A DNA stretch of 64,000 nucleotides from NCBI GenBank assembly GCA_964450385.1, contig CAYVEC010000010.1, positions 1,722-65,721 of the forward strand. Reading direction: 5' to 3'. The stretch comes from an uncultured Planctomycetales bacterium. Lineage in GTDB: Bacteria; Omnitrophota; Gorgyraeia; Zapsychrales; JANLHA01. Position 1 is the stretch's first letter, and every line of letters begins with the position of its first letter. Below the pieces are notes generated by a model. It had not been told where the DNA came from. It worked only from the letters and a program-made list of their open reading frames with translations, and did not search any database. The translations under genes were made by a program, and so were the position numbers. This document shows, piece after piece, positions 1-23,208 of this stretch.

Positions 1-2
1 AT

Positions 3-3000
3 CCTGCGATGTTGGCCCAGGCGATGGGCCGTCGTACCGCTCAAGATGATATTGAGGACCTGAGCCGGGTCCTGCCTGAGACGCCGCGGGAGGACATCGC
101 CGGGTGTGTTCATGCGATGGATGAGCGTCTTGAGCGGATGGCCGCGCTGAGCGAGGATGACTTTAGAAGGGCGACGGTGATCGATCGATTCCGTTTTCGA
201 AAGACGGAGATCACACATTACCGCATTCCGTATAGCGGTCATGTGACGGCAATCGGATATGGCGATGGCGCTGAGCGGAGGCACACGCTGATCGATTCAG
301 GGATCGGGGTTTATTATGCGCAGATGAGGAGGCTTTTTGCTCGTGACGGGATATCCCCGGCGAACATCGAGCGGATCGTGGCCACGCATTTTGATATGGA
401 TCACAACTCGGCTGCGGGATATTTTCAGGAAGAGGCGAGGTCCACGGGTCGCGAGATACGGATCATCGCGCATCCGAGATGGCGCGAGGTCATCGATAAC
501 CGGCAGCCCCGGTCAGCGGAGAATCAGGCGATCTCCCGCTTGATGGTAAGGCTTTTTGGATATCAGGACCCGGCGTCCGTGGATGAGTTCCCTTCAGCGG
601 CAGGGTCCGTCGAGATCGGGCTCCTGCCTGCGAGGTGTCGCCTTCTGCAGCTCGGGCGTCAACCGATCGTGTGCGGGGATATTGCCTTTAGCGTCCTCGA
701 ATCTTCGACGCATACCGTGGACTATGTCCACCTTGTCGATGCCGTGAGCGGCCTTCATGTCTTTGGCGAGTGTATCCGCCATCCGGTTCAGACCGAGGAG
801 GACCGGTTGTTTTGTAAATGCATGGTGCGGCTTCACCGGGGTGGTGATGTCAATCTCGATGCGGGGCTGTTCAAAGCGCACAATCACGCGTTTAAAACCG
901 ATCCGGGGTTGACTCTGCATCTTTCCGGCCATGATGAGCCGATGATTGACGGTCTTGCCGATGAGGCTTTTTGCGATCGGTGGCAGAGGGTGCCGTCAGA
1001 TTCCGGGATGATCGCTGGAATGACCGGCCTTGTGTGTCCGCCGAGGTATCTTCATGAGACCCAGATCCAATATCCAAGCGGTGTTGCGCGGCTCCGGGTC
1101 GGGCAGCGGGGGTCCGTGATCCCGGAACAGATGGCGATCTATTGTAATTATGTGATCGTCCATGATATTGAGCATCGGTGCGCGGTGGTGATACATACGG
1201 ATATCCGCGCTGAAGGCGACGCCGCGAAGGCCTTGACGCTGGGATTGATGATGCTCGGGCTTGAGCCTCACACGCTTGCCGCGAACCAGCGCTTTCTTCG
1301 GACAGCGATTGCTCGGCCGACTGGCACGGCAACGACTCGGCATTGGTCTGTCGAGACCCAGCATGCGTTTGAGGCGGCGTTCACGATGTTAGAGTTCCCG
1401 AGGCCGGCGATTTCAGTTGATGCGGCCTGGGGAGGGATTTCGATCCGGTATCTTGAAGATACGGCTCTTCTGATCGGGCTGCTCGATTCAGAGACGGCAT
1501 CGGTTGTGCTGTCCGTCGACCCTGAGGGATATTATGGACCCCTTGAGCCGGGGCCTGACTCGGGATCGGACCCCGCGATGTTAACCGGTGCGGCCGAGGC
1601 GATCCTGCTTGAGCCCGAGCAGGGCGAACAGGTGAGGGACCAGGAGCGAGTCGGAGAAGACAAGGGCGGGATGACGTTCGGCCTTGAGATCGAGACCGTT
1701 GAGAGTGATGATGATTATAGTCAGGGGATGCTCGAGACGGTGACGGAACACGACTCGTTAGCGGATGAAGGGCGATATCATCCAGGGCTTCGTCTTGTGC
1801 CGGTTGATGGGCGGCTCGAGACATGGTTTAAAGAGTATCGGACGAGCCCTTCATGGAGCGTCTATGCTCAGGCAGTGACGTGGGCGGCTCTGCGCCGGAA
1901 CGGGCTCGCGCTGAAAGATATTATTTCGGTTCAGGTGAATGTTGGGATGCCGTTCGCGGATCTGCCGGATGAGATCGCGCATAGGATGCTTAGCGACGCG
2001 CGCAAGGCCATGTTTTTTATTGCCGCGGCTTTTGTGAGTGACGATCGGATCGAGACAAAAAAAACATGGAAGGTCGTGGAGAGGTCGCCAAAGCATTGCC
2101 GGTCAATCGGCGGCCGAGCGTTCGTTCGATATGAATATGGTTTTGCTGACGGGATCAATCTCTGCGCGATCCTCATGGCGGTCCAGAGTGCCCACGCGGT
2201 CCTTGGAGCTGTCCATCTTTCCGATCAGGGCCCGATCCGTGATCCCGCGCTCGCGTGTCGCTTCAAGGAGATCTATGCCGAGAGTCTGGCGCCGATCCTA
2301 TCTCGATTCTATTTGCCGTATCAATATAAGAACGCGAGCAGTTTTGAATTCTTGGTGCGGTGGCGGCCTCGTCATCAGCCGGAGATCGCGGATCTTCGCC
2401 GGTCGTTTTTCTTGATTATTCAGGCGGTGAATGAGGCCATGGGGACGCTCGTCCCTTGGGAACGGGTCCGGGCGCTCGATCCGGTCTCGGCATGGGATAC
2501 TGGTTCGTTGGATCAGTCTGTTACGGACATGAGCACAACTGCCGAATGGGTGCCTTCGAATTCTCTGGTGGCCGATCATGGGATGCTGACCCGGCGCGTC
2601 GTGGATCGTCGTATTGCGCGGGCATACGCGGCGGCACAGGGCCGGATCGAGACCGGAGATGAGTGCTCAGAGGCGGTTCAGTTGTCGCGGATCTTTTGGG
2701 GGCATTTTTTGAGGGTTATTCCGAGCGGGCCGGTCACCCGGATCGCGCGCCTCTTGGAACAGACCGAGATCTGTTTTTATATTGTTCCCGGACTGCCCGA
2801 TGCGGGGTATTGGAAGATTGGGCCCGGATCGAACGAAAGATATCGGCTTCAGATCTTTGTTCGTGAGGGGACAAACAAAATGATCGTCGTTGTCCATGAG
2901 ATCGCGGCAGGGATGAGCGCCTTGGCCGGGACGCCGTTTGATCATCGGACGAATAAAGAGATCGGGGAACATTGTTTGAATTGGTTGACATCTGGAGAGA

Positions 3001-6000
3001 TCGATTCGCATCGGTATACCGACCATGCGAGCGGACAGATCCTCGGGACCACGGCGGGATCCGTCGACCTGTCAGCGGAGCAGGTGCGGAGCGAGAGGGC
3101 AGCGGTGGGCGTTTTTTCTAAAATACGGATCGCGTCAGCCGATGTCTCGCCGCTTCAGAGGATGCTCGCCGATGCGGTCGCACGGGCCGTGGTGTGTGAG
3201 GTGCCGGGTCAGGGGACGTTGATTGACGCGAAGGCCGCGGTCAGAACGCGCTATGAGCGCGAGGCTCTTGTCTGTGCCTTGTCGGCGATCGAACAGAGGG
3301 TTTTTTATAACAGCGCCACGATCCGTTACGATTATGTGGTGAGCGGGTTGTGGCGGCAGGCCTTGAATGAAGAGGGCCCGCGGGAGAGAAGCGTTTATCT
3401 CCTCGTGAGCGCTCGAGGGGCGGTGTGCGGGGCGCTTCAGGGATTCATGACCCGCAGTGGGTCGGCGGTCTTGGAAAAATTATTTGTTGAGCCGCAGGGG
3501 AGGAGGACGGGGCAGTTCCTGTTCCGGTGGTATATCACGGAATTGATCCGGCGGGGGGTGCGCCAGCTTATTTTCCATGCCGATGAGAAGATCGATGCGC
3601 GTTCGACACGGCGCGTGCAGGCTTTTTATGAGCGAGAGCTCACGGCCTTAATGGGAGAGGGTGTCATTGCTCGTTGGAGCCCGCCGCTCCCGGAAGACAG
3701 CTGGTACCGGGTTCAATTCCTTGATGATGGACGCGGTCACGATCACGGAATGATGACGGAGGCAGCGTCTTTCTCTTCCTTTGGTCAAGCGACGCGTTCA
3801 GACTGTTATGACAGAGCTGATACGGCGATGTTGGCCTGGCGTCAGCCGGTCGATCTCGCGTCCGGGTCTCCCACGGGGGATTTTTTACGTCGCGTGATTA
3901 AGGACACGGGCCTAACGAAACGCTTGAGCAGAGCGAGATTAAAACATCTTCAGCGCGCGGCGGATTGTATGGACGCGCTTTTGGCCGGCGATCCCGAGAG
4001 ATTTTTAAATGGGAAGGCGCCTCGAAGGACGCGCCTTGAAACGATCGGAGCATCTGACGTTTTGCCGCTCATCACGGCTGTGCGCGGGTTGACAGTGTTT
4101 GGAAAAATGAGCGCGGTCATTGCCGTGGTCCTCCATGATGTGGGATGGGTTCAGAACGGCGTCCCTCATGCTGACGCGGGTGAGGGCGTTGCCGCGGCAC
4201 TCCTTCAACAATGCCTCAGGCCTATTCGCGAGGCTGTGCCGAAGATCGTTTTGGCGCATTCAGATCTGCTGGATTTTTTGAAGGGGCGGCCGATGGTCGA
4301 CGGCCATAATATGTTCATCTCGGACCGGGAGGACCTGATCTCTCCCTGGGTTGACGGCCTCATCGCGCAGGGTTCACTCAAAGAAGAATTGACGGTCCGG
4401 TTCTTGAAAGATATTAAGACGGTGTTGGTGTTGGTTCAGGTGATTGATATGTATTCATCGGAGAGCCGTCTTCTGGCGCCGGATGACGCGCCGGATCATC
4501 TTGCCGCGGCCGATGATGTCTGCCGCCTGCGGGACATCCGTCAGATGGCTGATCGGATCTTTGATCCGGCTGTCGCGCGGCGTGAGCGTCCTGAACCAGC
4601 CGCCGAGCCGACAGTTAAGAATCTGCCGTCACCGCAACCGTCAAGGCCCATCGAGCCGCAGGCGCGGTGTGTGTTACCAACGGAGTTCGCACTTTCCGCC
4701 CCCCAGGGGATCGGCGAGGAGATGGTGGTGGCTCTTTCGCTCGACGGTCAGGGTCGGCTCAGATTTCCATCCGGGATAAAAGACGCATTCCCTAATGGCC
4801 TTCTTCTCGTCGCGTTTCATGAAGAGCAGAGGATCGCGCTGTATCGCCGTGACGAGATCGAGCATATTTTGAGCTCGGTCTTTTCAGAGGGGTGGTTCCT
4901 GAGCAGAGAGGGGCTGCTGGCCCTTGGTTCGATCGGGGCGGTGAGCCAGTATGTCGAGGCCCTTGATCGGCAGGGCCGGTTTACTATTCAGGATTCGATG
5001 GTGAGGGCGCTGAGGCCTCATGATTATGCGTTTGAGATCGTGCGGTATCGTGACCGCCTGTGGCTTCGTCCGGCGCGGGTTCTGACAGAGACCGTTTCGG
5101 ATAAGGGGATGATCGGGAACGAGCGGGTCGGGGAGGCGGTGCCTTATTTTGGGCGCCTTGGATCGCGGCTGCCATCACCGGACGGCGCGATCGATCTGCG
5201 GTTTTTATCTGTGGTATCCCGCTATATTAAGGAAGCCGCTTCCAGGCATGAGATGGTCTTGAACGCGGAGAATGAAAGCGCGGTGACCGCCGTGATCCCG
5301 GCGATGATACGGTTGATCGATATCTATGTTGGGGCGTTGCGGCAGCTGAACGTTTTCTACGAGGGGACATCCTTTTTTGAACGATACACGACGCAGGCCT
5401 TGGCCTTTCGGAATGAGCTGAATGAGTTGCGAGGGCGATTTGACCGCTCTATTTTTGATGGATTCTTAAAGGATGGGAGAAAGAATAAAGACGCTTGTTT
5501 TGTTTTGATTGGCGACATATCTACGGAGCTTCGCGGTATCGTTCAGAACCGGTCTGCGCAGCGTGTCCTGACCGAGCTGTATCGCGCGTTTTTAAAATAC
5601 GCGCTTCTCTTTGAGCATGCCCGGAGTATCTATGTCTCGGGTCTGCGGGACGGGATTATTGACAGCGAGATCGATCTCCTGGCTGCGTGGGAGGGAATAT
5701 GGTACAGCGCGGTCGAGAGGGTCGAGGGTCTTGGATATGAAAATCGTATCCATTATTCGATCGATGAGGAACATACAGCAGCGGATGTGAGGATACGACA
5801 TGCTCCCGTATCGACGATCGAGTTGATGATGCGGGAGCTTTGCAAAAACATCATCAATCATGCTCCAGGGAATCGGGGGATGATCCTGGAAGGCAAGGCC
5901 AGCTTGGCCATTGTGCGGGAAAGAGATCGGCTGCGGTTTTCTATAGCCAGTGATACGGCGCCCTTAAACGAAGGCGAGATCGCTCGCTGGATGGGCGTGG

Positions 6001-9000
6001 GGTATACCTCTCTTGCGAGTAAGGGTTCTTGGCCGCTTCCCGGGGGGTATGGACTTGGGTTGGTGAAAATTAAAGGGCTCGCTGAATTCCTGGGTGGAGA
6101 CTTCACAATCGTGAAAATCGGTGATCGTTCAGTCAGGTTCGACATTCTTCTGCCCAAGGATTGCCTGGCCGGGGCCACGAGCCGTTTGGCGCGCGATCCT
6201 GTGCCCGTCGTGTACGCGGAGGGAGCTCCAGCGTCTACCGATCAGGTCTCGGGTCGGGTCAGGGCCTTGGATTCGCAAAGAAATGCCGACCCGGCGATGG
6301 TAGGTCAGGCTGCCGAGGCTGCCGAGGGCGTTTCTGAAGGAGGCTGTGCGCGCGTTATCCTTCCTGATGGTCAAATAGCGGAGGTCTCATCTTTTTCGGA
6401 ACGGCTTTTTGCAGCGGCTGAACGGGTATGGCCCGGCGGAGGTCTCGGCGACTGTCTTGAGAAGATCGGTGGACGGGCGTACCGGGTGGTGCGCGGCAAG
6501 ACATATTGGATCCTCGGTGATTATATTTTTATTGATGAGACTGTCTGGCCGTCTGTCGCCGAGGCCTGGGCGGAATATCACGATGCCGTCATCGTGGCGC
6601 ATTTTCAGGCGCGCCAAGGTCAGACATTTCCGGATTTTCCCCATGGAGGCTATACACGCCAGGCGATCCTTCTTATGCAGGAACTTCGGGGGCTGTTCCC
6701 GGGTCGGGCCGTGTTGGATGCGGGCGCCGGGGACGGGGTCCTTAGCTTCCTCGCTTCGAGGCTCGGGGCGGCGCGTGTCGTCGGGATTGAATGCGTTACA
6801 GGCAAGGTCGATCGGGCACAGCGGCTTTTATCGTGGAATCGGGGAAGGATCGTATTTTTTCATAAGGACTTCCGTGATCTTCAGGATATTGCGTGCGAAA
6901 TGCCGATCGATGTGGTCGTTGCGAATTTGGGCGTAAACGGCATGAAAGAGACGTACAGCGGTGTGACCGCGAATTGGCATGATGAGATCGCGGCGCGGAT
7001 CCAGCCAGAGGTGTATTGCGCGTTTGGGTTGATGGGGCATGACGTCCGGGCTGTCGAGATGACGCAGAGACGGTTTGAACGTTCGGGATGGCGGCCGGTG
7101 ATGCGGCACGACAGCGTCATGACGGTCATGAATACGAGCGCCCTGATTTTTTCTTTCAGACAGGCTCCCGTGAGGCTGGAATGTTTAAAGAAGGATAATC
7201 CTGATCAAGGGATGCTGGCTCGCGGCTGCAGTGGGGGCCAAGATCTGCGGTTTGACCGGAGAGGTCCCTGGGTGGTCACAATCGATGGCCCGTCGGGGAC
7301 CGGCAAGGGCACAGCTGCTAAACATCTTGCCCGGCGTCTCGGATTCATGCATGTGGACCTCGGCATGTTTTATCGGGCCTTGACCCAGAAGGCCTTGCGC
7401 CGCGGCATCGATGTGAATGACGCGTCCGAGGTCCGCGCGTTGCTGTCTTCAACAAAGGTGTCGTTGAGCCTGAATCTTGGTGAGACGCGGGTGTTGTGTG
7501 ACGGCGAGGATGTGACGGAGCGGATCCGCACGCCTGAGGTGGATCGGGCGGTGCCTGATCTGGCGCGGCATGGCGAGGTCTCGGGGTTTGTCCTATCTGC
7601 GGCACGGGAGATCGGGAAGCATCATAATATCGTGATCGAAGGCCGGAATGCCGGGACAGATATTTTTCCCTCGGCCAGTGGAGGAAAATTTTATTTGGTG
7701 ACAGAGATCCATGAGCGGGCCCGACGCCGGTGGGAAGACTACCGTTGCGAGAGGCCGGGACTTTCCCTGGAGGCGGTTGAGCGTGATTTGATCGAGCGGG
7801 ATCGGAAAGATATGGAACGCGCGGTTGCGCCGCTCCGGCAGGCCCCGGACGCGGTCGTTATTGACAACACGCACCTCGAGTCTCGTGATGTCGTAGATAA
7901 GATGGAGGCCGTTGTCCGGGATATGATGTCTCGGAGACAGCAGGATTCGGCGATGGTCTCAGTTCCGACTCCTGAGCAGTATTCAAGTGATGACGCGATG
8001 AAGAGGATCGATCGTGCTCCCTACGACGGCGCGGAGACGGCGGATCTGGGGTATTGTTCTCTTCCCCTCGATGAGACGCTCATGCGGCTGTTGCCTTCCA
8101 TGACGTTGGGCCAAAGGATCTGCTGGATCCGTCTGGCGCGCGGGATGTATCAGAAAAAGGAGCTCCTCACCGTGGCAGGGATCAGGTCATCGACATACGC
8201 GTACATTGAAAGCCGGCCGGATCCTCCTGAGCCGAAACGGTTGCTCGCGATCGCGCGCGTCCTCAAGGTTGATCCGATCCTTATTCTTGCCGGAAAAGGG
8301 ATGGCTGCGGCGATGGCAGAACTGGATGACGCGACGGCGCTCAAAATGTTGCGGATTCGTCGGGGATGGACGCAGAAGGATCTGGGCGAGGCGCTGATGG
8401 CGGCGGGATTTCCTTTTACTGGGGAGAAACAGGAAAATGTCCGGACCGCGGTTCATTACTGGGAGGAAGGCGCGGTCCCCTCTAGTCGTGAGAAAAGGGA
8501 GATCATTCAACGAGTGCTCGGTTCGTGTGCAATATTTAAGGAGAAGACAGTGGCGGATCAGGCGGTGACGCCGATAACGGAACGCCTTGGCCCGGGTCAA
8601 GGCGATGAGCGGCTCATGATTCCGGCAGACCCGCGATGGAGCCGGTTTATTGATAGTCATCCCGAGGCGACGGATGAGGCGCTCGTCTTCGTGATGAACT
8701 TGTTGATCCGGCATCGGGCGCAAGGATTATCGATTGAGGATGTTCGTCGTCTCCGTTTGGGTCAGGGTCAGCGATCGGTGCGGAGCGAGGCCGAAGGGTT
8801 TTTAAGCCGGGCAGATTTTAAGGTGATGATCGATGGGGTCAGGGGAGCTCCGACACAGGAGGCGCGGCAGCGGGTCCAGACAGGGATCCGGCAGGCCTTG
8901 GGCTCATGGGAGGTTTATCTTCGCCGGAAGTCCGGGGAGATTGAAAAGGCCGAGGATGTTCTGAGCGCACCGGTTGCGTTCGATACCGTCGTTCAGCGAC

Positions 9001-10613
9001 TGGGTGACGATGGGGAGAGCTCGTGGGCCATCAGCCTGATGCTTGATCATTACAGCTATCGTTTTTATCCTGTTGAATGGTATGGGATCCGGATCTTTTT
9101 AAAGCGGCGCCTTGAGAGCGCGGTCGTGGCGCCGACTCTGAAGAGCGTGTTGCCGCCGGTGCTTTTTATGGCGGCGGGACTCGTGGCTGAGAGCCCGATG
9201 GCGTTTGGGGCCGGCGGATGGGTGGCGGCAGGGATGATGGCGTATTCAGCCTGGAGAAAGGTTTCGCGACGGCGAGCGAAGGGCGGGATCTCTCGGTGGT
9301 CGGAGGATGCCTGTGTTTGCTCTGAGCCTCATGTTGAGGCGGTGATGGGCTCTATTTTTGAGGAAGAAATTCAGGGGATTCCTTTTCATACGTCAATGGA
9401 ACACATCGAGTTCTGCGAGTGGCTGGATCGGAGTTCGGAACGGTTGGGGTCGAGACCGCATCTGGTTTATCTCGATAGCCATCATGATGCCGCGCCTTTT
9501 CGATCGCAGCCGAATTCAGCGAATTGGGTCCGGACCCGTCGGGGGCTTTTTTCAAAAGTGGTTTGGTATATCTCGCCGCTGACTATTAGATATTTTATGA
9601 GACGGACAGGCTTGCTGTATCGGGAGGCGCTGGTTCGGCTTCAGGGATATTATCGGGAGTTTGATATCGAGGTGGTGGCCCATGTTCATGGCCTGTCTTC
9701 TTTAGAAGGGCCGACGGTCATGAGTGTGGATATGGATTTTTTTGATTGTGAATTCGGCGGCGTGGGTGGGGTTCCGGTCACGCGTCAGACGCTGCAATTG
9801 GCAGATGGGCAGAGAATTCTTCGTCGGATCATCAGAACGCTGAATCGCGGCAAGGCTCAGATTGTGGGTGTTGATCTGACGTTAACAGGCCGTCCCTTTT
9901 TGTCGATGAAGAGCGCACAGCAATGGCGCGGGATGACGAGAGAGGTTTTTCGTGAGAGCCTCCGCCGAGGGGGCGGCCGGGTGAAGGCCGGAGGAACGGG
10001 ACGGACGGGGTCCTTATTCGGATGGTGTTCGTCGGCGCTGCGGTGGCTTAAGGTGCGGCTGCGTGTTTTTGGAAGGGCCGATCGGATCTTGGAGGGGCAG
10101 ACGCCAGGGGCGTCATGCGAGCAGGCGGCGCCGGCGGCGGTCGGGGTTCGGGGTTCTGTGGTGCGGGTGACTCGCTCATCGGTTCAGGACCCGAATAATA
10201 CGACATGGCGCGGGTATTTTGAAGGAAAACTCTTGATGGAGGAAGGCTCCCGTGACCAGGCCATGTTGGCCCGGTCGGATTACGAGCAAAAATATCTCGA
10301 GCGGTTCTTAAGGCCGGAGGAATATCCGGAGTGGGCGGTATTCAGGACTGCGCTCGTGCGAGACCCGGGCGCGTACCATCCGGTGTGGCGGACGTTGCTC
10401 GATAACGTCGTCGCAGTTGAGATGGCCCTTTATGATGATGGAGGGCAGTACGATTCTGAAAATATTCACACTGTGATCCCCGACGGGATCATCTGGCCGA
10501 CAGATCCTTTGATCCCGATCTCTCGGCCACCCAAGGCCGATATTTTATTCTTTCCTCTGGCCCCTATGGGGTTCTTCAGGTCCCGCCAACGGATCGGTAT
10601 GGCGGTCATCTAA
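3..10613 (+). CDS. giant multidomain protein, 5'-partial (at least 3534 aa inside window; frame open to window edge)
   Basis: Single stop-free frame of 10.6 kb (random expectation at this GC is a stop every ~40 codons). Recognisable motif sets of several protein families occur in series, separated by Pro/acidic linkers. TAA stop at 10611-10613. Codon usage resembles neighbouring genes. Confidence 0.6.
   Translation, partial: [3536 protein letters not shown]
250..950 (+). other. metallo-beta-lactamase-fold-like module of giant ORF
   Basis: TLIDSGIG followed by ATHFDMDHN (a variant of the HxHxDH zinc motif, second His replaced by Asp) and later HLSGHDEP. Motif-level only. Confidence 0.3.
4050..4300 (+). 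other. HD-domain-like phosphohydrolase module of giant ORF
   Basis: [12 protein letters not shown] (HD dyad at nt ~4134-4139) followed by conserved His/Asp (VPHADAGEG ... LAHSDLLD). Confidence 0.3.
5800..6170 (+). other. GHKL/HATPase_c ATPase module of giant ORF
   Basis: N-box [10 protein letters not shown], G1-like [9 protein letters not shown], G2 box [19 protein letters not shown], ending FDILLP. No HisKA/phospho-His box recognisable upstream. Confidence 0.55.
6440..7150 (+). other. PrmA-like class I SAM methyltransferase module of giant ORF
   Basis: Motif I [27 protein letters not shown], downstream IDVVVANLG (PrmA-like VVANI motif), upstream YWILGDY resembling the PrmA N-domain. Confidence 0.5.
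7272..7930 (+). other. cytidylate-kinase (Cmk)-like P-loop kinase module of giant ORF
   Basis: [36 protein letters not shown] (Cmk P-loop plus DTGAMYRA-like box), [10 protein letters not shown] (GRDIGTVVFP-like), [15 protein letters not shown] (LID/ARRR), about 220 aa as in free-standing Cmk. In-frame GTG at 7272 preceded by GGAGAGG 7 nt upstream. Confidence 0.6.
8100..8290 (+). other. HTH_XRE-like module 1 of giant ORF
   Basis: [63 protein letters not shown]: XRE/Cro-C1 type helix-turn-helix pattern. Confidence 0.4.
8340..8530 (+). other. HTH_XRE-like module 2 of giant ORF
   Basis: [23 protein letters not shown] ... [23 protein letters not shown]: second XRE-type HTH (RxxxGxTQxxLA pattern). 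Confidence 0.45.
9135..9250 (+). other. hydrophobic helix pair (possible membrane hairpin) in giant ORF
   Basis: [36 protein letters not shown] followed by a basic stretch [10 protein letters not shown]. Confidence 0.3.
9380..9900 (+). other. arginase/deacetylase-fold-like metal-binding motif pair in giant ORF C-terminus
   Basis: YLDSHHD (matches the DAHxD Mn ligands) and about 80 aa later SVDMDFFD (matches SxDxDxxD). The GGDHS motif is not found, so this is tentative. Confidence 0.25.
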
Positions 10614-10618
10614 TCGTA

Positions 10619-12418
10619 TTATGTTCGTAAAAATTGTTTGTCAAGAAAGGCGGTCGTGAGTTCGACGACGATCGGCCGGCCGTGGGGGCAGGTGAACGGG
10701 TCACGGCAGGCGAGGAGCTGGGTGCGTTGAAATTCAACCTGTTGCGCGCTCATCGGGTCTCCGGACATGACCGAGGCCCGGCAGGCGCGTCGGGCAAGCT
10801 GCTGGTGATCGCATCGGGCGAGGTCCCCGCCGGTGAGGAGTTCATGAACGGCCCATTCTGCGTTGGGGATGAGGGCCGGATGGGTGTGGATCGCGAGGGT
10901 AGTCTCATCAAATTGTGTTGTCGAGAATCCCATAGCCTCGAGCACCGACTGGGATGTGGCCCAGACGACCTTTTCCTGGGGGGTCAATGTTAAGGTAAAC
11001 GGGGTGAGGAGGTGCTGGATCTCGACCCGGCTGTTCTGCATTTGTTCAACGAGGCGTTCAAAGGTGATCCGTTCTTGCGCTGCGTGCTGGTCGACCATGA
11101 GGAGCGAGGTCGCGCTCTCAAAGAAAAGATATTTGTAATGGAAGGCACCGATGAAACGCGACGCGATAAATCGTTCTTTCATGGAGAGGTGGCGGGCCTG
11201 GAGGGCGTGGTCCGCGAAGAGAGAATCAGGGGCGTTTGCCGGATAGGCGTATTCGTTTGTCGCCGGGCGCGCGGTCCAGTCAGTCGGATGTGCGGCACCC
11301 TGCACGGGTTCTTCGGATGAGGGTTCGGTCAGTTCACGATCGAGGAAGCCGGACACCAGACGCCGGATGTTGAGCGGCGGATCCGATGGGGCCGTCGCTG
11401 GGCCGTCGCTGGCCTGCCGGGCGGAACCCCCTTGCATGAGGGACTGTTCCGTCATGCGCCGGAGGGCCTGGCAGAGACCGGCCTCATGATGGATCTTGAC
11501 CTCGCGTTTTGTCGGATGGATGTTCACGTCGATATCGCGGGCCGGGAGATCGAGGTTTAGATAAAAGAACGGATAGTGCCGGGGCGGCAGGATGAGCCGG
11601 TAGACGTTGTTCATGTGGAAACGGATGGCGGCATTCTCGACCGGCCGGCCGTTGATAAAAAGGAATTGGAGGTCGCGTTTGGTGCGGAGGATATTGATGT
11701 CGCCGAGGATAAAGGAGACTGTTGTGCCGAGGACCTCGAATTGTTCCTCGCCTTGGATGAAAAAATCTTTATTGAGGTTGAGGACCTGGCTGACCCGGGC
11801 GGCGGCGTCCGATGACGGCGCGGCATCGATGAGGGTCTTTCCATTATGCGTCACCTTGAACCGCTTTTCGGGAAACAGGAGCGTGTAAGGGATGATGATG
11901 TCCAGGACCTGATTCAGTTCCGCGGCGTCGGATTTTAAGAATTTCCGCCGGGCCGGTGTATTAAAAAAGAGCTCCTGGACCTGGATCTCGGTGCCGGGTG
12001 TCATGCCCAGGGCTTTCACGCCGAGCCGCTCCCCGGCGCGGAGGTGGATCTCGTGTCCGGCGTCATGCTCGCGTGTTCGGCTGCGGAGCGTGATATCCGA
12101 GACTGCGGCGATGCTGTAGAGGGCCTCTCCGCGGAATCCGAGCGACTGGATGTCCCAGAGATCATCGGCCGATTGGATCTTGCTTGTGGAGTGGCGCTGA
12201 AAGATCGTTTCAAGATCGTCGGGATCGATGCCGCTGCCGTTATCACGGATCACGAGGCGCGTTTTTCCGGCCTGCTCGAGCTCGACCTCGATCCGGTCCG
12301 CGCTGGCATCCAGGGCGTTCTCGAGGAGCTCCTTGATCACGGAGGCGGGCCGGTCAACGACCTCTCCGGCCGCGATCTTGCTCACGATATCGGGGGGCAG
12401 GACATGGACGCGTTTCAT
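10619..12418 (-). CDS. mutL: DNA mismatch repair protein MutL (endonuclease-type)
   Basis: 599 aa. N-terminal GHKL motifs (KELLENALDA). C-terminal endonuclease motif DQHAAQERITFE and CPHGRP zinc motif. 4-bp ATGA overlap with mutS. Confidence 0.95.
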   Translation of the reverse strand: MKRVHVLPPDIVSKIAAGEVVDRPASVIKELLENALDASADRIEVELEQAGKTRLVIRDNGSGIDPDDLETIFQRHSTSKIQSADDLWDIQSLGFRGEALYSIAAVSDITLRSRTREHDAGHEIHLRAGERLGVKALGMTPGTEIQVQELFFNTPARRKFLKSDAAELNQVLDIIIPYTLLFPEKRFKVTHNGKTLIDAAPSSDAAARVSQVLNLNKDFFIQGEEQFEVLGTTVSFILGDINILRTKRDLQFLFINGRPVENAAIRFHMNNVYRLILPPRHYPFFYLNLDLPARDIDVNIHPTKREVKIHHEAGLCQALRRMTEQSLMQGGSARQASDGPATAPSDPPLNIRRLVSGFLDRELTEPSSEEPVQGAAHPTDWTARPATNEYAYPANAPDSLFADHALQARHLSMKERFIASRFIGAFHYKYLFFESATSLLMVDQHAAQERITFERLVEQMQNSRVEIQHLLTPFTLTLTPQEKVVWATSQSVLEAMGFSTTQFDETTLAIHTHPALIPNAEWAVHELLTGGDLARCDHQQLARRACRASVMSGDPMSAQQVEFQRTQLLACRDPFTCPHGRPIVVELTTAFLDKQFLRT

Positions 12419-15021
12419 GGTGTCACCGTTTCTGTTTCGATCCTTGTCTTCATCTGATGGAGGACCGACAGGGCCTCGAGCGGGGTCAGGGTATTGATGT
12501 CGATGCCGGCGAGTTCTCGCCGGATCGTCTCCGTCGCGAGGGCCATGTGCTGATGGAATAATTCCAATTGCGGGGAACTCGGAACCGTGGCAGGCGCCGT
12601 GGTGAGGGCCGCGTTCATGTCCTCGTGCGCCTCGAGTTCGCGGAGAACCTCCTGGGCCCGCGCGATGATCGCCTTCGGGATGCCCGCGAGTTGGGCCACG
12701 TAGATACCGTAGGAGTCGTCCGTGCTTCCCGGCACGATCTTATGGAGAAAGACGACCTCGCCGCCCCAGTCTTTGACCGCGACGTGATAATTTTTGATGC
12801 CGGGGATCTCCTGAGCGAGAGCGGTCAGTTCATGAAAATGGGTTGCGAAGAGGACCCGCGCCGGTGTCCGCCCCAGGTGCTCCGCAATCGACCAGGCCAG
12901 GCTGAGCCCGTCAACCGTTGATGTCCCGCGGCCGATCTCGTCGAGGATCACGAGGCTGCGGTCGGAGAGATTGTTCAGGATATCGGCCGTCTCGTTCATT
13001 TCGACCATGAAGGTGCTTTGGCCTTTTGAGATGTCGTCATGGGCGCCGATGCGGGTGAAGATCTTATCCACGACCCCGATATGGGCCGCGTCAGCGGGAA
13101 TGAAACTCCCGATTTGGGCGAGGATGACGAGGATCGCGATCTGGCGGATGTAGGTCGATTTCCCGGCCATGTTCGGGCCGGTCAGGATGACGAGGTGCTG
13201 GTCGCCCTGGTTGAGCCGTGTGTCATTCGGAACGAAGGGCAGGGTGCTGGTGCGTTCGACCACGGGATGACGTCCGGCGGTGATCTCGATCCGGTCATCA
13301 TCCGTGATCTCGGGCGCGGTGTAGCCGGGCTCCTCGGCGAGCCGGCTTAAGGCGTAGAGGGCGTCGATCATGCTCACCTGATGAAAACATTCATGGAGGG
13401 CCGCTGTCTGGCTGAGGATCGTCTGTTGTAATTCTTCGAGCAGGGTCTGCTCGAGGGTGAGGATCTTTTCCTGGGCGGTGAGGATCCTGTCTTCATAGTC
13501 TTTGAGTTCAGCCGTGATAAAGCGTTCCGCGTTGACGAGGGTCTGTTTGCGGATGTAGTCCGCGGGGACCCGCGCGAGATGGGTTCGTGTGACTTCGATA
13601 TAATAGCCGAAGATCCGGTTAAAACCGACCTTGAGCGATCCGATCCCGGTTCGGGCCGCCTCACGCGTCTGGAAATTTTTGAGCCATTCATGCCCATGGG
13701 CCTGAAGCTCTTTGAGGCTGTCGAGTTCCGCGTGGTAGCCGGGGCGGATCACTTTCCCCTCGTGTTTGGTGAGCGGCATCTCGGGATTCATGGCCCGGTC
13801 GAGCAGGGTTCGGAGGTCCGGCAGGTCCGAGACCGAGATCAGCGGCGTGTGCCCGAGGAGGGGGCCGATCGCGGCGGAAAAATCCGGGAGCAGGTTGAGG
13901 GCCGTCCGGATATTAAACACGTCGCGGGCGTTTGTGTAGCCGCAGGAGAGCCGTGAGATGCTTTTTTCAACATCCGGCATGGCGCCGAGAAGTGGGGCCA
14001 GGGCATCCTGGACTGCCGGGGCGTTGAGCAGACACCGGACCGCGGATTGACGCGCGAGAATGTCTTCAGGATTTTTGAGCGGGTGAAAGAACCAAAAGTT
14101 GAGGAGGCGGCGGCCGGACGCGCAGAGGGTCCGGTCGATGGTTTTAAAAACTGTCGTCAGCTCGAGCCCGTAGATTGCGGCGGGTGAAATATAGGCGAAA
14201 TCTCCGTCGGCAAAAAGACAGATCTTATCAATGTGGCGGAGCGGCTGGCGGTTCATTTGCTTCAGATATTCGAGGAGGGCCCCGGCGCTTGCCGTGGCCG
14301 CCGGAAGGTCCTGGACCCCGAACCCTCGGAGATTCGGGAGCCGGAAATGTTCAGAGAGCGCCTTTTGAGCGAGCTCGAGGTTAAAACACCAGTCGTCGTG
14401 CGGGTTAAAGGCGATGTGTTTGGCCTGGATCAGGGGATGCCGCGCGAGCCGGGCGATCCGCTCGTGGTCGCGGGCCGGATACACGCATTCTTGGACCGAG
14501 AGCCGGCTCATGATCTCGAGGCACTGCTCAAGAGACCGATATTCATTCGTCTGGAGCGTGCCGGTTGAGGGATCGATCAGGGCAAGCCCGATCGCGTCCC
14601 CGAGGGGGCAGAGACAGATGATGTAGCGGGCCTCGCTTGAGGATGTATCTAGAAAGGTTCCCGCGGTAATCACCCGGATGACGTCGCGGCGCACAATGCC
14701 CTTGGCGTTTTTGGGGTCTTCGACCTGTTCGCAGATGGCGATCTTTTTTCCGGCCCGGATGAGTTTGGTGATATAGCTGTCTGCGGAATGGTATGGGATC
14801 CCGCACATCGGAACGTGGTTGGCCGTGCCTTTGCCGCGGGAGGTGAGGACTAGGTCCAGGATCCGGCTGGCCACGGCCGCGTCCTCGTAAAACATTTCGT
14901 AGAAGTCGCCGAGGCGGAAGAAGAGAATGCAGTCTTGATACCGGTTTTTGATCTGCCGGTATTGGACCAACATCGGGGTTTCGGGGTCGTGGGGCATACC
15001 GCTATACAGTTCAGGGGTCAA
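12415..15021 (-). CDS. mutS: DNA mismatch repair protein MutS
   Basis: 868 aa. MutS N-terminal mismatch-binding region, Walker A GPNMAGKST, FATHFHELT motif. Confidence 0.95.
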   Translation of the reverse strand: MTPELYSGMPHDPETPMLVQYRQIKNRYQDCILFFRLGDFYEMFYEDAAVASRILDLVLTSRGKGTANHVPMCGIPYHSADSYITKLIRAGKKIAICEQVEDPKNAKGIVRRDVIRVITAGTFLDTSSSEARYIICLCPLGDAIGLALIDPSTGTLQTNEYRSLEQCLEIMSRLSVQECVYPARDHERIARLARHPLIQAKHIAFNPHDDWCFNLELAQKALSEHFRLPNLRGFGVQDLPAATASAGALLEYLKQMNRQPLRHIDKICLFADGDFAYISPAAIYGLELTTVFKTIDRTLCASGRRLLNFWFFHPLKNPEDILARQSAVRCLLNAPAVQDALAPLLGAMPDVEKSISRLSCGYTNARDVFNIRTALNLLPDFSAAIGPLLGHTPLISVSDLPDLRTLLDRAMNPEMPLTKHEGKVIRPGYHAELDSLKELQAHGHEWLKNFQTREAARTGIGSLKVGFNRIFGYYIEVTRTHLARVPADYIRKQTLVNAERFITAELKDYEDRILTAQEKILTLEQTLLEELQQTILSQTAALHECFHQVSMIDALYALSRLAEEPGYTAPEITDDDRIEITAGRHPVVERTSTLPFVPNDTRLNQGDQHLVILTGPNMAGKSTYIRQIAILVILAQIGSFIPADAAHIGVVDKIFTRIGAHDDISKGQSTFMVEMNETADILNNLSDRSLVILDEIGRGTSTVDGLSLAWSIAEHLGRTPARVLFATHFHELTALAQEIPGIKNYHVAVKDWGGEVVFLHKIVPGSTDDSYGIYVAQLAGIPKAIIARAQEVLRELEAHEDMNAALTTAPATVPSSPQLELFHQHMALATETIRRELAGIDINTLTPLEALSVLHQMKTRIETETVTP

Positions 15022-15108
15022 TAGGGTTTTTTAGCACGACCATCATAGCATAAAATGAAAAAAAAGGACAACAGGTGATTTTACTCCGCCAGAAACACCA
15101 TCGATTCG

Positions 15109-15137
15109 TTGACAGCTTTTTATGTGAGGTTTATAAT
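15109..15137 (+). promoter_or_regulatory. sigma70-type promoter, TTGACA-17-TATAAT (perfect consensus)
   Basis: ttgaca at ~15109-15114, 17-nt spacer, tataat at ~15132-15137. 45 nt upstream of the ATG at 15182, in an AT-rich intergenic region. Confidence 0.5.
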
Positions 15138-15181
15138 CAAAGTGTCTTAATATCCGAATACTCTTATCTAAAGGAATATCT

Positions 15182-16837
15182 ATGCGCATCCCCCTGGGTC
15201 GTAAGATTTTGTGGCTGATCATGTTGTGTGTTTTTTTCAGCCTGATGGGCGCGGCGGGTCCGGCTCCGGTCATGGCCAAGGGGAGTATGGTCGCTGGCCA
15301 TTTAGTTCAGGAAGGAATCCAGGCATATAAAGAAGGATACCATCGTGAGGCGATCCACAACTTCAGCAAGGCCCTTCTTGTTGAGCCGGGTCAGGCCGAG
15401 GCCCTTCGGTATCTTCGATTGATGGGGATCCCTGAGGGGATATACGGGACCGGCGAGTCTTCGATGACTATGGAGATGAAATTAGATCAGGCCGTTGTTG
15501 AGTATGAGTCCCGGATCGCGGAGCTCCGTCAGGAAAATGAGCAGCAGCGCTTGGATAAAGAGCGATTGATCGCGGAACAAGAGCAGCTGCAGCAGATCGT
15601 CGCGGCGAAAGAGGAAGAGCATCGTCAGATCTTTGATGATGTTGCCGAGTACAAAGAGGCGGTCGATGGAGAGCTCCGGGACCGCGAGGCGGCGATCGCT
15701 CAGCTCAAGGGAGAGAAGGATAAGCAGGCCGAGGCCGTGGACACCCTGCATCAGCGGCTTAAGGATTCCCGTGAGACGATGGTCGAGCAGGACGCCCTGG
15801 TCATCAAAAAGGAGCAGGAGATCGAGACCCTGAAGGGGGTCTTGTCAGAGAAGGATCAGACGTACCGAAAGGAAGTCGCTGATGTTGTTGAGGTCCTTGC
15901 GGCCACGGACCAGGTCGCCCTTGAGAAGGAAAAGGAAGCGGCCGGACTTCAACGGCGTTATGATCAGGAGACCACGGTGCTCAAAAAAGAGGTCCGCAAT
16001 AAAGAGACGGAACTGATGATCCAGGGTCAGCGGCTTGCCTATACGCAGCAGCAGGCGGTCGCGGCCGAAAAGGCCCTTGTCTCGCGTGACCAGAGGATCC
16101 GCGATCTTGAGGCCCAGGTGACGGGACTTCAGCGTCAGTCTCAGACCCTGTTGAATGATGTCACGGCGCTCAAAGAGGAACAGCGTTTCCGTTTTGCCCA
16201 GGGGGCTCAGCGGGCGGACGAGGCCCTGGTGGCGCGCACGAAGCGGCAGGATGGGCTGATCCGGGAACTGAAGGAGCAGCTCGTGGCGGACCGGCAGCGC
16301 CTTGAACGGTTTGTCCTTTTGGATCAGTCGAATACCGAGGAGGCCTGCGCCTTAAAGACCCGCATTGACGAGATGGCTGCGGACCTTGAGCAGAAGGAAT
16401 ATCAGCTTGTGTTATTGAAGGATGACAATTCGATGCTCGAGACCCGGGTCAACGACGCCCAGGAGCGTCTGCGGACCGTCGAGGCCCTTCTTGAGCAGAA
16501 GGAGGCGGAGATCCTGCGGATGGAGAAGGAGCAGGGGGCGATCATTGTTGAGCTCAAGGATCAGCTGGTCTTATGCAAAAATCAGCTCGACGGTCTTGCC
16601 GCCTCCGGCCAGGCGAGCAGTCCCGAGGCGGTGGTCCTGAGAAAACGCATCGATGAGCTCATGACAGAACTTGAAAAGAAGGAATATCAGCTCTTGTTGT
16701 TGAAGAACGATCATTCGACGATCGATGTTCGGCTCAGGGATGCTCGGGAACGCCTTCGCGCGGTCGAGGCCATGCTCGAGCAGAAGGAATATGAGCTCGA
16801 GCGGATGGAAGGTCAGCGCGGGGCAGGCGCTCCGTAA
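15182..16837 (+). CDS. secreted/membrane-anchored coiled-coil protein with N-terminal TPR-like motif
   Basis: 551 aa. Signal peptide or TM helix (ILWLIMLCVFFSLMGAAGPAPVMA), then a long E/Q/R/L-rich heptad coiled coil. Contains a ~94-aa tandem duplicated unit. Confidence 0.7.
   Translation: MRIPLGRKILWLIMLCVFFSLMGAAGPAPVMAKGSMVAGHLVQEGIQAYKEGYHREAIHNFSKALLVEPGQAEALRYLRLMGIPEGIYGTGESSMTMEMKLDQAVVEYESRIAELRQENEQQRLDKERLIAEQEQLQQIVAAKEEEHRQIFDDVAEYKEAVDGELRDREAAIAQLKGEKDKQAEAVDTLHQRLKDSRETMVEQDALVIKKEQEIETLKGVLSEKDQTYRKEVADVVEVLAATDQVALEKEKEAAGLQRRYDQETTVLKKEVRNKETELMIQGQRLAYTQQQAVAAEKALVSRDQRIRDLEAQVTGLQRQSQTLLNDVTALKEEQRFRFAQGAQRADEALVARTKRQDGLIRELKEQLVADRQRLERFVLLDQSNTEEACALKTRIDEMAADLEQKEYQLVLLKDDNSMLETRVNDAQERLRTVEALLEQKEAEILRMEKEQGAIIVELKDQLVLCKNQLDGLAASGQASSPEAVVLRKRIDELMTELEKKEYQLLLLKNDHSTIDVRLRDARERLRAVEAMLEQKEYELERMEGQRGAGAP
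16252..16822 (+). repeat. diverged tandem duplication (2 x ~282 nt, ~94 aa) inside the coiled-coil gene
   Basis: Unit 1 GLIRELKEQLVADRQRLE...ACALKTRIDEMAADLEQKEYQLVLLKDDNSMLETRVNDAQERLRTVEALLEQKEAEILRMEKEQ. Unit 2 AIIVELKDQLVLCKNQLD...AVVLRKRIDELMTELEKKEYQLLLLKNDHSTIDVRLRDARERLRAVEAMLEQKEYELERMEGQR. Roughly 55-60% identity. Confidence 0.5.
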
Positions 16838-16869
16838 TCGTTGTACCACGATCAGGGAGATACGGTCCG

Positions 16870-17250
16870 ATGGCAAAAAGGATTTTGATTATTGAGGATG
16901 ATCCTGATCTCGTCAAGATCATCGAATATCGTCTCACGAGCCAGGGGTATGAGGTCCTCGTCGCCCGCGACGGGTACGCGGGGCTCATGATGGCCAAACG
17001 CGAGCGGCCGGACCTGATCACCCTGGACCTGAACCTGCCGGAGCTCAACGGGTTCACGGTCTGCAGTATGATCAAGGGCAACCGCTCGTATCGCGACATC
17101 CCGATCATCATGCTCACGGCCCGGGATGGCTTTGCCGATCGCGTCTTTGATGACAAGATGAAGCCCGAATTCTACATGACAAAACCGTTCGAGGTCGACG
17201 ATCTCTTGGCCAAGGTCCATGAGCTGGTTCATGATGATCGGAAAAAATGA
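16870..17250 (+). CDS. single-domain response regulator (CheY-like receiver)
   Basis: 126 aa. ILIIEDDPD, phospho-acceptor context DLITLDLNLPELNGF, IIMLTARD, KPF. No output domain. Confidence 0.85.
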   Translation: MAKRILIIEDDPDLVKIIEYRLTSQGYEVLVARDGYAGLMMAKRERPDLITLDLNLPELNGFTVCSMIKGNRSYRDIPIIMLTARDGFADRVFDDKMKPEFYMTKPFEVDDLLAKVHELVHDDRKK

Positions 17251-17391
17251 AGCCTTCTGATCGAGGCGCGGGCTGGAGGCCTCGGGCGTTCATGATGGTT
17301 CCTTTCGCATTGTTCGCAATTCCCTCATCGGGAAAAATTCGCTGAGTTTCATTTCGTGATTCGATATGGGCACGAGGCATCGAAGGCGCTG

Positions 17392-18813
17392 CTACGGCGA
17401 GGTTCTTTGATCTTCAGCCGCGCGGGAGGGGAGGTTCAGAAGGACGAGGAGCATGACGCCAAGGGGGAAGAAATGGAGGATCATGCGAGAGAGTCCCAGG
17501 TGCGTTGTGACCAAAGCATAATGTTGTGTCAATGAGAAGCCCAGAAAGTGCACTCCAAAGAATCCTACGAGGCTGATGAACAAGGCCCAGGCCTCAGCCT
17601 GGTAGCGGGTCCGCAATATTTTCGGCAATGAGAGCGCGAGCAGAAACCAGATGAGGCTCCAGTTCCAGGACAGGAAGAGGTCCTCGAAAAAATATTGAAG
17701 GACCACAAGCCCGCGGCTGACCGTTGCCCAGGACCAATCGATCAGAAGCGATTGAAGTTCAAAATGACCACAGGCGGTGACGCGTTCGGCCCGCGGGGGG
17801 AACGCAGTCATCTTAAAGACAAGATAGAGCGAGGCGATCCCGAAGCTGACGATAAAAAATCGGATCAGCGAGAATAGTTTTTTACTAAAAGAGATTTCGC
17901 CGTGGTGCATTAACAGGACGAAGAACCCCATCAGGTGCATCATCACATAGCCCACGCCTTCCAATTTGACAAACGAGCAGCAGGCTGAGAAGAGGGCCGC
18001 CAGGACGAGCCAGCCGTGTTCACGCCGGTGATGCCACAGGAAGAGGGAGATGAAGACGGCCGCGTTGTAATATCCCATCATGAGGTCTCGATATCCGTTC
18101 GACGCGTGATTGATCAGGAGGTTCGACGATAACAGAAAGACAACGGCGATGAGACCCCATCGGCGGTTCGTCGTCCCTGAAAAGAAATAATAGAAGAACG
18201 TGATGAGCGATAAGAACATGGGGAAAAAGATGGATTTGATCAGCTGGTCGTCCCAGTGGCCTAAATTCAAGGCCACCCACATTTCTAGCAAAGGGACCTG
18301 GAGCGGGTAGGCCCGAGTCGGGAAATTTTTGACAAACGCGAGGGATTGTTCATGAAAAAGGATCTTCGCGTTGAAGGCATGTGTTGCGATCACGTCCCAT
18401 TTATAGACGGGAATGAAAAAGGTCTCCCAAAAAACGAAAATGATTTGATAGATGATAAAACCCATGAGCGCACAGTCGACGGCTGAGAGAGGGGTCCGGT
18501 GTTCTGTGCGGGGGGTGTTCACTTGACTGTCGGGATGGCGGAGCTTGTACCAGGATGCGATTGTGATGATGAGGGCGACAGGCGCGCTGATCGATCCGAA
18601 TGTATAAGGGATATGGAGGATGCCTAGGATGAGCATGAGTTGGGCAAGCAGGCCGATGCCTAGACCATATCCCATCATCCAGACAACCAAGGAGGGAATC
18701 CGATGCGGCAGCAGCATTCGGATGATAACGACCCCGAAGGCCGCGGGGAGTAAGAGGCTGTTTAATAGGGAGAAGAGGGACATGGTTGTTTTCCTTTGAA
18801 GGCGACGAGGCAT
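17392..18813 (-). CDS. polytopic integral membrane protein (possible GT-C-type glycosyltransferase or polymerase)
   Basis: 473 aa, more than 10 hydrophobic segments rich in aromatic residues. No confident family assignment. Confidence 0.55.
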   Translation of the reverse strand: MPRRLQRKTTMSLFSLLNSLLLPAAFGVVIIRMLLPHRIPSLVVWMMGYGLGIGLLAQLMLILGILHIPYTFGSISAPVALIITIASWYKLRHPDSQVNTPRTEHRTPLSAVDCALMGFIIYQIIFVFWETFFIPVYKWDVIATHAFNAKILFHEQSLAFVKNFPTRAYPLQVPLLEMWVALNLGHWDDQLIKSIFFPMFLSLITFFYYFFSGTTNRRWGLIAVVFLLSSNLLINHASNGYRDLMMGYYNAAVFISLFLWHHRREHGWLVLAALFSACCSFVKLEGVGYVMMHLMGFFVLLMHHGEISFSKKLFSLIRFFIVSFGIASLYLVFKMTAFPPRAERVTACGHFELQSLLIDWSWATVSRGLVVLQYFFEDLFLSWNWSLIWFLLALSLPKILRTRYQAEAWALFISLVGFFGVHFLGFSLTQHYALVTTHLGLSRMILHFFPLGVMLLVLLNLPSRAAEDQRTSP

Positions 18814-20787: not shown

Positions 20788-20819
20788 TCGATTGACCTCA
20801 AGGGGCACGCGGTGATACG

Positions 20820-20855
20820 GAAGCCCGGTCGTGAGCGACTGGGCTTCTTTATTTG
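20820..20855 (+). terminator. rho-independent terminator after the PEP-CTERM gene
   Basis: GAAGCCCGGTCG-tgag-CGACTGGGCTTC, a 12-bp stem with one G:U, followed by TTTATTTG. Confidence 0.55.
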
Positions 20856-23180: not shown

Positions 23181-23208
23181 TAGACAGGCGAGAACAAGGA
23201 GAGTTCAG

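Follow-up and report, generated by a model that had tools for sequence, protein, structure and literature searches.

Here we show that the first 10.6 kb of a 64,000-nt stretch of DNA from an uncultured bacterium (GenBank assembly GCA_964450385.1, contig CAYVEC010000010.1, positions 1,722 to 65,721; hereafter the window) is taken up by a single stop-free reading frame, convergent to mutL and mutS, in which units from unrelated protein families follow one another. These 10.6 kb very probably form the 3' end of a giant multi-enzyme gene in Candidatus Omnitrophota, cut by the contig or window edge. As in its relatives, the complete gene probably comprises tens of thousands of codons, of which the visible part would be about the last tenth. 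The giant frame belongs to a known class; the new point is a recurring junction peptide between its modules, missed by the initial annotation (a model's reading of the letters and their open reading frames (ORFs)), which may mark where the giant protein is cut. Features of the locus and of the related loci are collected in Table 1.

Table 1. Features of the giant frame and its neighbours in the window, and the corresponding large ORFs beside mutS/mutL in related genomes (nt, nucleotide; aa, amino acid).
Feature	Position (nt) or source	Strand	Remarks
Junction (D)-P-A-M-L, window edge	1..14	+	(G)AT CCT GCG ATG TTG, D codon incomplete; repeat D17 pairs the edge with 3820-3836
Stop-free frame, very probably 3' part of giant gene	3..10613	+	3,536 sense codons, then stop at 10611-10613; 5' window edge open
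Module 1, metallo-beta-lactamase fold	9..1007	+	aa 3-335; Pfam match aa 91-246
Junction D-S-G-M-I	999..1013	+	
Module 2	1008..1577	+	aa 336-525; no family match in Pfam/NCBIfam searches
Junction D-P-A-M-L	1569..1583	+	
Module 3, predicted carboxylate-amine ligase fold (PafA/Dop/GCL/GS-like)	1578..2582	+	aa 526-860; final 29 residues predicted disordered
Junction D-H-G-M-L	2574..2588	+	alignment of the zincin-like family begins at this Met
Module 4	2583..3749	+	aa 861-1249; N-terminal ~160 aa tentatively zincin-like
Junction D-H-G-M-M	3741..3755	+	
Spacer, 26 aa	3750..3827	+	between two tandem junctions
Junction D-T-A-M-L	3819..3833	+	
Module 5	3828..5108	+	aa 1276-1702; VLHDVGW string, Pro-rich linker, DxxGR pair
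Junction D-K-G-M-I	5100..5114	+	
Module 6	5109..6296	+	aa 1703-2098; helical N-terminal part, then GHKL-type ATPase aa ~1939-2051 (weak)
Junction D-P-A-M-V	6288..6302	+	
Module 7	6297..7211	+	aa 2099-2403; N-terminal domain, then class I SAM methyltransferase core aa ~2232-2309
Junction D-Q-G-M-L	7203..7217	+	
Module 8, complete cytidylate kinase	7212..7952	+	aa 2404-2650, 247 aa; Pfam match aa 2425-2637
Junction D-S-A-M-V	7944..7958	+	
Spacer, 15 aa	7953..7997	+	between two tandem junctions
Junction D-D-A-M-K	7989..8003	+	
Module 9	7998..10262	+	aa 2666-3420; double XRE-type HTH, region without assigned family, hydrophobic hairpin, D-x-H-x-D / S-x-D-x-D region
Junction D-Q-A-M-L	10254..10268	+	L001 homologue aligns across the site without the motif
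Module 10, C-terminal unit	10263..10610	+	aa 3421-3536; with aa 3345-3420 homologous to C-terminal part of L001 giant
mutL	10619..12418	-	convergent; its stop 5 nt from the giant-frame stop
mutS	12415..15021	-	used for placement in Omnitrophota and to fetch syntenic loci
L001	GCA_022711395.1		giant of 33,383 residues
L002	GCA_964595465.1		at least 1,282 residues, contig end cuts ORF
L003	ERZ27252100		giant of 33,164 residues
L004	GCA_030688425.1		giant of 38,329 residues
L005	ERZ27252253		1,938 plus at least 1,493 residues
L006	Logan SRR29782968		at least 5,154 residues, contig end cuts ORF
L007	Logan SRR28093593		at least 1,270 residues, contig end cuts ORF

The initial annotation had taken the frame to be translated sequence in the standard code, and both points are confirmed. 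Over the same interval the other two forward frames contain 143 and 188 stops and the three reverse frames 58-121 each, so that chance is excluded by far as an explanation of 3,536 stop-free codons (the ORF listing starts the frame at its first ATG, giving 9..10613 and 3,534 aa). A codon log-likelihood score, trained on 27 other ORFs of the window and applied to 18 successive 600-nt blocks, was positive for the giant frame throughout (0.13-0.46) and the highest of the six frames in all 18 blocks, indicating that the whole stretch is coding in the genome's own dialect; the values lie slightly under those of core genes (mutS, 0.61) and near those of weaker genes. Amino-acid composition is ordinary, codon usage is uniform, and there are no intergenic-like gaps. 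With respect to the code, MutL (TIGR00585, 464 bits) and MutS (TIGR01070, 875 bits) match their equivalog models at full length, and recoding of stop codons is ruled out by a frame that has no internal stop at all.

The giant protein has no match to itself in homology searches of a 15-billion-protein collection, although neighbours encoded on the same contig are present there; the frame was probably not called, or not kept, as a coding sequence in the source record. A word-seeded homology search with aa 1-1249 returned zero matches, self included, and relatives came only from exhaustive searching, while the proteins of the window form singleton clusters. Contig scans with rare peptides from the N-terminal 525 aa and from MutL gave no match, both being limited by the choice of pattern.

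Ten modules of protein size, 116-755 aa long, make up the visible chain together with two short spacers of 26 and 15 aa; each module opens with Met, preceded by Ala or Gly at -1 and Asp at -3. Domain families are varied, none dominates by copy number, and no internal repeats occur. The proposal that the chain joins unrelated families holds, given profile matches to Lactamase_B, HATPase_c, class I methyltransferase, Cytidylate_kin, and HTH_3 (HTH, helix-turn-helix), and the motif strings on which it was founded (ATHFDMDHN, VLHDVGW, VLDAGAGDG...VVANLG, GPSGTGKGT/MFYRA/ARRR, LDSHHD, SVDMDFFD) are all present in the translation. The individual assignments fared unequally. The metallo-beta-lactamase (MBL) fold of module 1 is supported (Lactamase_B, E 2.8e-9, over the Pfam cut-off). 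The GHKL ATPase of module 6 matches HATPase_c at E 6.3e-5, but its 23.8 bits fall under the 26.4 cut-off and the assignment is weak. Module 7 carries the class I S-adenosylmethionine (SAM) methyltransferase fold that had been recognised (PrmA model 32 bits, cut-off 22), but is not a PrmA orthologue, as only the Rossmann core matches. Of the two XRE helix-turn-helix domains in module 9, the first (HTH_3, aa 2709-2758, E 8e-8) stands and the second (~aa 2779-2798, E 0.01) is weak.

Two other calls did not gain adequate support. The HD-like domain suggested by VLHDVGW in module 5 has neither profile nor PDB sequence support, no Pfam or NCBIfam match being obtained at E<=10 for aa 1250-1702 or a sub-segment. 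The arginase-like motif pair in module 9 reaches only E 0.054 and 13.4 bits against a cut-off of 22, in a sub-threshold alignment spanning profile positions 106-252 of 280, again with no PDB sequence match; its YLDSHHD region shows no significant similarity to the C-terminal end of the giant in L002. Two readings made by eye, MraZ-like for the DxxGR pair of module 5 and GNAT-like for the C-terminal part of module 4, were not confirmed (no Pfam match at E<=10, no PDB sequence match). A Kyte-Doolittle scan of the visible chain gave one plausible hydrophobic hairpin, at aa ~3040-3095 in module 9.

Module 8 is, as had been proposed, a cytidylate kinase of full length: it scores E 8e-54 against Pfam (profile positions 1-208 of 211) and 179.3 bits against TIGR00017 (positions 3-213 of 217), above the equivalog cut-off of 135.55 for bacterial (d)CMP kinase, with the P-loop and the other motifs present. 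Whereas Cmk is otherwise a stand-alone protein of ~225 aa or part of fusions (PanC/Cmk, AroA/Cmk, Cmk/Der), here it is embedded between junctions deep in a giant frame. Its best relatives, all stand-alone proteins, are at most 47% identical to it, and no second cmk was noticed among the window ORFs, of which only some were profiled.

The modules are separated by a junction with the consensus D-x-[A/G]-M-[LIVM]. In its strict form this pattern occurs at 10 sites in the giant frame, compared with a mean of 0.27 and a maximum of 3 after shuffling, and at none in the 16,359 aa of 42 other window ORFs; 12 sites are counted when an M-K variant and the site at the window edge are added. Under a position matrix the 11 complete sites score 21-28 bits and the next best position no more than 4.9 bits, a gap which, the matrix having been trained on the same 11 sites, shows only the absence of intermediates. 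The full-length Cmk match is flanked by junctions at -21 and +13 residues. AlphaFold places a confident helix directly after the junction at residue 526 and gives pLDDT <50 (the model's per-residue confidence) over the 29 residues before the junction at 861. An origin of the junctions as DNA-level repeats or recombination scars was considered and rejected: only 17-19-nt similarities were found, which the peptide accounts for, and there are no long repeats. Promoter-like or terminator sites are not in excess inside the giant frame.

Placement of the locus was made through MutS, which matches itself on the source contig and then relatives 56-65% identical over nearly its full length. The near-full-length relatives that carry a name all belong to Candidatus Omnitrophota/Omnitrophica, except for a record labelled "hydrothermal vent metagenome" without attribution (P0200); a single partial match carries the label Bathyarchaeia, probably a binning error. 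In every relative with sufficient contig (L001-L007), a giant gene, or a large ORF truncated by the contig end, lies convergent to mutS/mutL, so that the synteny comparison called for by the initial annotation finds the same arrangement in seven relatives. The surroundings of mutS-mutL (accA, LysM-YkuD, DUF212, yifB, and a response regulator) keep their order between these loci and window positions 10619-27727. This synteny persists though MutS is only 62-65% identical, and the module content of the giants is nearly wholly different from one relative to another. Homology to the giants at these loci was detected at aa 3345-3477 of the window chain (C-terminal part of the L001 giant, 55 bits) and in the double-HTH region at aa 2680-2840, which shares 33% identity with a portion of the giant in L004.

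When aa 526-1702 were searched exhaustively with HMMER against 1.84 billion representatives, no more than 17 relatives emerged. With few exceptions these are proteins of 1,050-5,736 residues from Omnitrophota or Elusimicrobia metagenome-assembled genomes (MAGs), in which the shared modules are differently placed. The suggestion that the combination lies outside any described family is consequently replaced by a more specific one, the chain being the 3' part of a giant gene of Omnitrophota type. Nor does the speculation about a nucleotide- or RNA-modifying mega-enzyme hold, the modules being heterogeneous and swapped between relatives.

Two of the domains that recur in other Omnitrophota and Elusimicrobia giants, module 3 and the N-terminal domain of module 4, have no Pfam match. 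Module 3 is predicted to have a carboxylate-amine ligase fold like that of PafA/Dop and glutamate-cysteine ligase (GCL). Its family, of ~280 aa with invariant E, S, Q, N, G, R, K, K, R, and E positions in the family alignment, matches no Pfam or PDB family by sequence. It resembles PafA/Dop, glutamate-cysteine ligase, and glutamine synthetase (GS) in fold but differs from them in being found only within giant proteins of Omnitrophota and Elusimicrobia (17 matches among the 1.84 billion representatives). The N-terminal domain of module 4 (aa 861-1020) is tentatively assigned as zincin-like. Invariant residues of this family are H965-E966 (in H-E-I-A-A), H981, and N984; it thus has H-E-x-x-A with a His 16 residues downstream instead of the canonical HExxH with a third ligand. 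The assignment is kept tentative because Foldseek comparison did not corroborate it. A protein of 5,736 aa from the same search (P0132) has two copies of the domain, both preceded, at aa ~4640-4660 and ~5290-5310, by DLSADGD[E/K]ALT, a string that resembles ...VADHG-MLTR of the window and is present at just those two places in P0132.

The junction peptide recurs in three of the syntenic relatives, the nearest ones. The L006 giant (45% GC, i.e. guanine plus cytosine) has TDHAML three times and GDQAML once, four sites against 0.14 expected, and in addition a DHALL variant in which CTC (Leu) stands where ATG would be; L007 (44% GC) has DQAML and DKAML, and L005 has DEAML. Since GC content is 44-50% in the L005-L007 genomes and 58% in the window, and junction codons differ between sites, conservation of the peptide argues that selection acts on the peptide itself. 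A different peptide, S-S-[S/P/A]-[A/V/G], is over-represented in four other Omnitrophota giants (P0131, P0134, P0135, and P0136, with 3, 5, 9, and 9 copies where 0.3-0.5 are expected), for instance as SSPG, GASSAV, SSSAA, and SSPV. It sits between domain envelopes, in P0136 within a repeated linker of ~50 aa, and in P0134 a complete PfkB kinase ends at 719, SSPG lies at 741, and a ligase-fold domain occupies 751-1035. The giant frame of the window and the Elusimicrobia giants do not contain this peptide.

Omnitrophota giant multi-enzyme genes, of which the giant protein of Velamenicoccus archaeovorus is the type example, have been described by West-Roberts et al. (2023, bioRxiv 10.1101/2023.11.21.568195), using a length criterion of >=30,000 aa, and by Nielsen & Lui (2026, bioRxiv 10.64898/2026.06.07.730766), using >=10,000 aa and with a catalogue of 916 proteins. 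The former describe "Archaeovorins" as mosaics of glycosyltransferases, methyltransferases, peptidases, NUDIX, HATPase_c, and radical SAM domains; the latter define "class 1 multi-enzyme metabolic clusters" and observe that in MAGs from short reads such ORFs are cut where a contig stops. The frame resembles these giants in its Omnitrophota genome, in the tiling of one frame by unrelated enzyme families with typical HATPase_c, methyltransferase, peptidase-like, and kinase content, in its break at a contig end, in having positional homologues of 33-38 thousand residues, and in sharing modules with Omnitrophota and Elusimicrobia giants. Unlike them, it is visible over only 3,536 residues, contains a full-length Cmk, and shows, in this part, a single hydrophobic hairpin (94% of catalogued giant-protein members have transmembrane segments or a signal peptide). 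It differs from the Archaeovorin subtype in that no Pfam match to SecA DEAD-like, C39 peptidase, or S8 peptidase domains was found in the visible 3,536 aa, and such domains could lie in the remainder. The discrete conserved junction peptide also sets it apart, being unreported in the two describing papers, one of which states the cleavage points of these proteins to be unknown; in the literature, as far as searchable, we found no cleavage or junction signature for Omnitrophota giant proteins.

We consider it somewhat short of an even chance (roughly 45%) that the giant product is a polyprotein and that the junction peptides are its processing sites, as we infer from the pattern of sites. Cutting would occur between the small residue and Met/Leu (x-A/G | M-L), by a P1'-directed metallopeptidase for which the best candidate would be the embedded zincin-like module at aa 861-1020, its own N-terminus being a junction site, and would release individual enzymes and regulators together with two short spacer peptides from the tandem sites. 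Several observations favour this reading. A strict three-position consensus suits the needs of a protease and is not needed by linkers. Tandem sites with spacers of 15-26 residues are typical of processed precursors and suggest signals instead of structure. Thermolysin-like zincins select a hydrophobic residue C-terminal to the scissile bond, which is what follows the proposed cut, and a putative zincin-like module, in whose family H-E and a His further downstream are invariant, lies in the chain with a junction at its N-terminus. The consensus recurs at unit boundaries, as in a polyprotein, with 10-12 D-x-[AG]-M sites, the flanks of Cmk, the start of the zincin-like domain, and the sites in L005-L007. 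Polyproteins of viruses (picornavirus, flavivirus, nidovirus replicase) offer a parallel in their long frame of complete units, their short boundary consensus with small residues before the cut, their tandem sites giving spacer peptides, and a candidate protease within the chain that has a site at its own terminus. They differ in that the present gene is cellular and chromosomal, its modules are unrelated, its putative protease has a different fold, and cleavage is here only inferred.

A number of points weigh against processing at the junctions. The peptidase assignment of module 4 is weak, and the L006 and L007 giants show no zincin-like module as far as they could be read. The D-x-[A/G]-M-L motif is missing from the 3' parts of the giants in L001-L004, and the L001 homologue aligns straight across the junction at 3421, which places at least this site within a conserved unit. 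Module 9 comprises several domains in its 755 aa and has no internal junction; junctions are therefore not placed at every domain boundary.

These points are partly shared with an explanation that we regard as plausible without being probable, in which the same gene tail encodes a product that remains uncut, a membrane-tethered multi-enzyme scaffold. D-x-[A/G]-M-L would then be a conserved inter-module linker element. It might serve as a hinge, as the place where a chaperone or export factor docks or recognises the chain, or be a trace of how modules are recruited. Published accounts treat the giants as multi-enzyme polypeptides and merely speculate about cleavage, and an uncut chain agrees with the putative nature of the embedded peptidase, with the continuity of the L001 homologue across site 3421, and with the different recurring linkers (S-S-[SPA]-[AVG]) of other giants, for which a "linker style" fits as well as cleavage. 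It is less easily reconciled with the junctions themselves: an invariant Asp, a small residue, and Met/Leu are not required of a flexible linker, the motif persists over genomes of 44-58% GC with different codons, tandem sites 15-26 aa apart are hard to account for structurally, and AlphaFold predicts a structured helix directly after the module Met.

That the junction ATGs are internal translation starts, from which downstream parts of the messenger RNA are translated independently, is improbable. Met is present at every window site, and G occupies the third position of the -1 codon at 10 of the 12 sites (5.7 expected; P ~0.012), which could reflect a nucleotide context. Shine-Dalgarno-like sequences, however, precede only 3 of 11 junction ATGs, compared with 19% of other internal Met codons and 16 of 29 real gene starts, and starts in a frame without stops would yield nested giant products instead of modules. 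The Leu (CTC) variant of L006, the preservation of Asp at -3 as a residue through both GAT and GAC, and the lack of any excess of promoter-like sites also speak against such starts.

Still more remote is an origin as a polyvalent protein of a phage or conjugative element, that is, a many-domain effector delivered with invading DNA. Such proteins combine disparate domains, and a zincin-like metallopeptidase has been proposed to release them (Iyer, Burroughs, Anand, de Souza, Aravind 2017, PMC5512222). The giant frame recalls this class in joining numerous disparate domains, in its possible zincin-like domain, and in content of MBL, methyltransferase, and HTH type. Unlike polyvalent proteins, the giant gene has metabolic or housekeeping-type modules and no mobile-element context; its chromosomal housekeeping neighbourhood (mutS, mutL, yifB, accA) is kept with it in seven relatives, and its likely size of >30,000 aa far exceeds that of polyvalent proteins with their 2-15 domains. 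PHROG and PADLOC searches gave only generic matches, on which ground a defence system or phage origin was likewise rejected.

An assembly or annotation artefact (ordinary genes fused by lost stops or frameshifts, or a chimeric contig), the alternative left standing by the initial annotation, is hardly credible: the giant protein is missing from the protein collection while its neighbours are present and the contig (66,052 bp) extends at most ~2 kb beyond the window, but codon statistics show 3,536 stop-free codons of uniform usage without intergenic-like gaps, and both the convergent giant ORF and the junction peptide recur in independent assemblies, the ORF in those from NCBI, ENA, and Logan.

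Processing at the junctions can be extended to a wider proposal, which we consider speculative and, on balance, unlikely. A sub-lineage of Omnitrophota would encode its giant genes as true cellular polyproteins, each comprising dozens to hundreds of complete enzymes and regulators and cut at D-x-A/G | M-L by an embedded atypical (H-E-x-x-A...H) zincin-like peptidase, and other Omnitrophota would use S-S-[S/P/A]-[A/V/G]. If true, a virus-like strategy of gene expression would serve a large share of a bacterial proteome, including housekeeping-grade enzymes such as Cmk. Whatever its function, the window and three relatives together provide a candidate with solid statistics, a peptide of five residues that bounds modules of protein size and is kept across very different base compositions, and with it the question of whether Omnitrophota giants act as one chain or as many cut proteins becomes directly testable. 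Complete enzymes of marker type also lie concealed in giant frames (Cmk in the window; PfkB, GlpX, and Gmk-like modules in relatives), which can distort estimates of completeness and contamination as well as product names taken from single domains, and MAG contigs that end inside giant genes under-report such genes.

The public names of six relatives (P0128, P0129, P0131, P0132, P0135, and P0136) each derive from one embedded domain and are misleading for mosaic giants; the names in use are "PTS sugar transporter subunit IIA", "protein kinase", "methyltransferase", "glycogen phosphorylase", "TPR protein", and "radical SAM protein". P0132 is labelled Bacteroidales, possibly through a binning error. 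The giant frame of L006 contains His_Phos_1 and Ham1-like (ITPase) domains (6680-14700, minus strand), and that of L007 (9100-12912, minus strand) contains two P-loop kinase modules that are guanylate-kinase-like by eye (LYSGPPGGGKGA) and a stretch with HFHLQAF. In the window itself, GC skew of the plus strand is positive (0.07-0.27) throughout positions 1-16000; since it persists over the minus-strand mutL/mutS part, it looks related to replication and not to the coding strand. The sole RNA family matches of the window are a tRNA-Leu(CAA) and a tRNA-Ala(GGC), which lie 130 nt apart at 27796-28087 on the minus strand.

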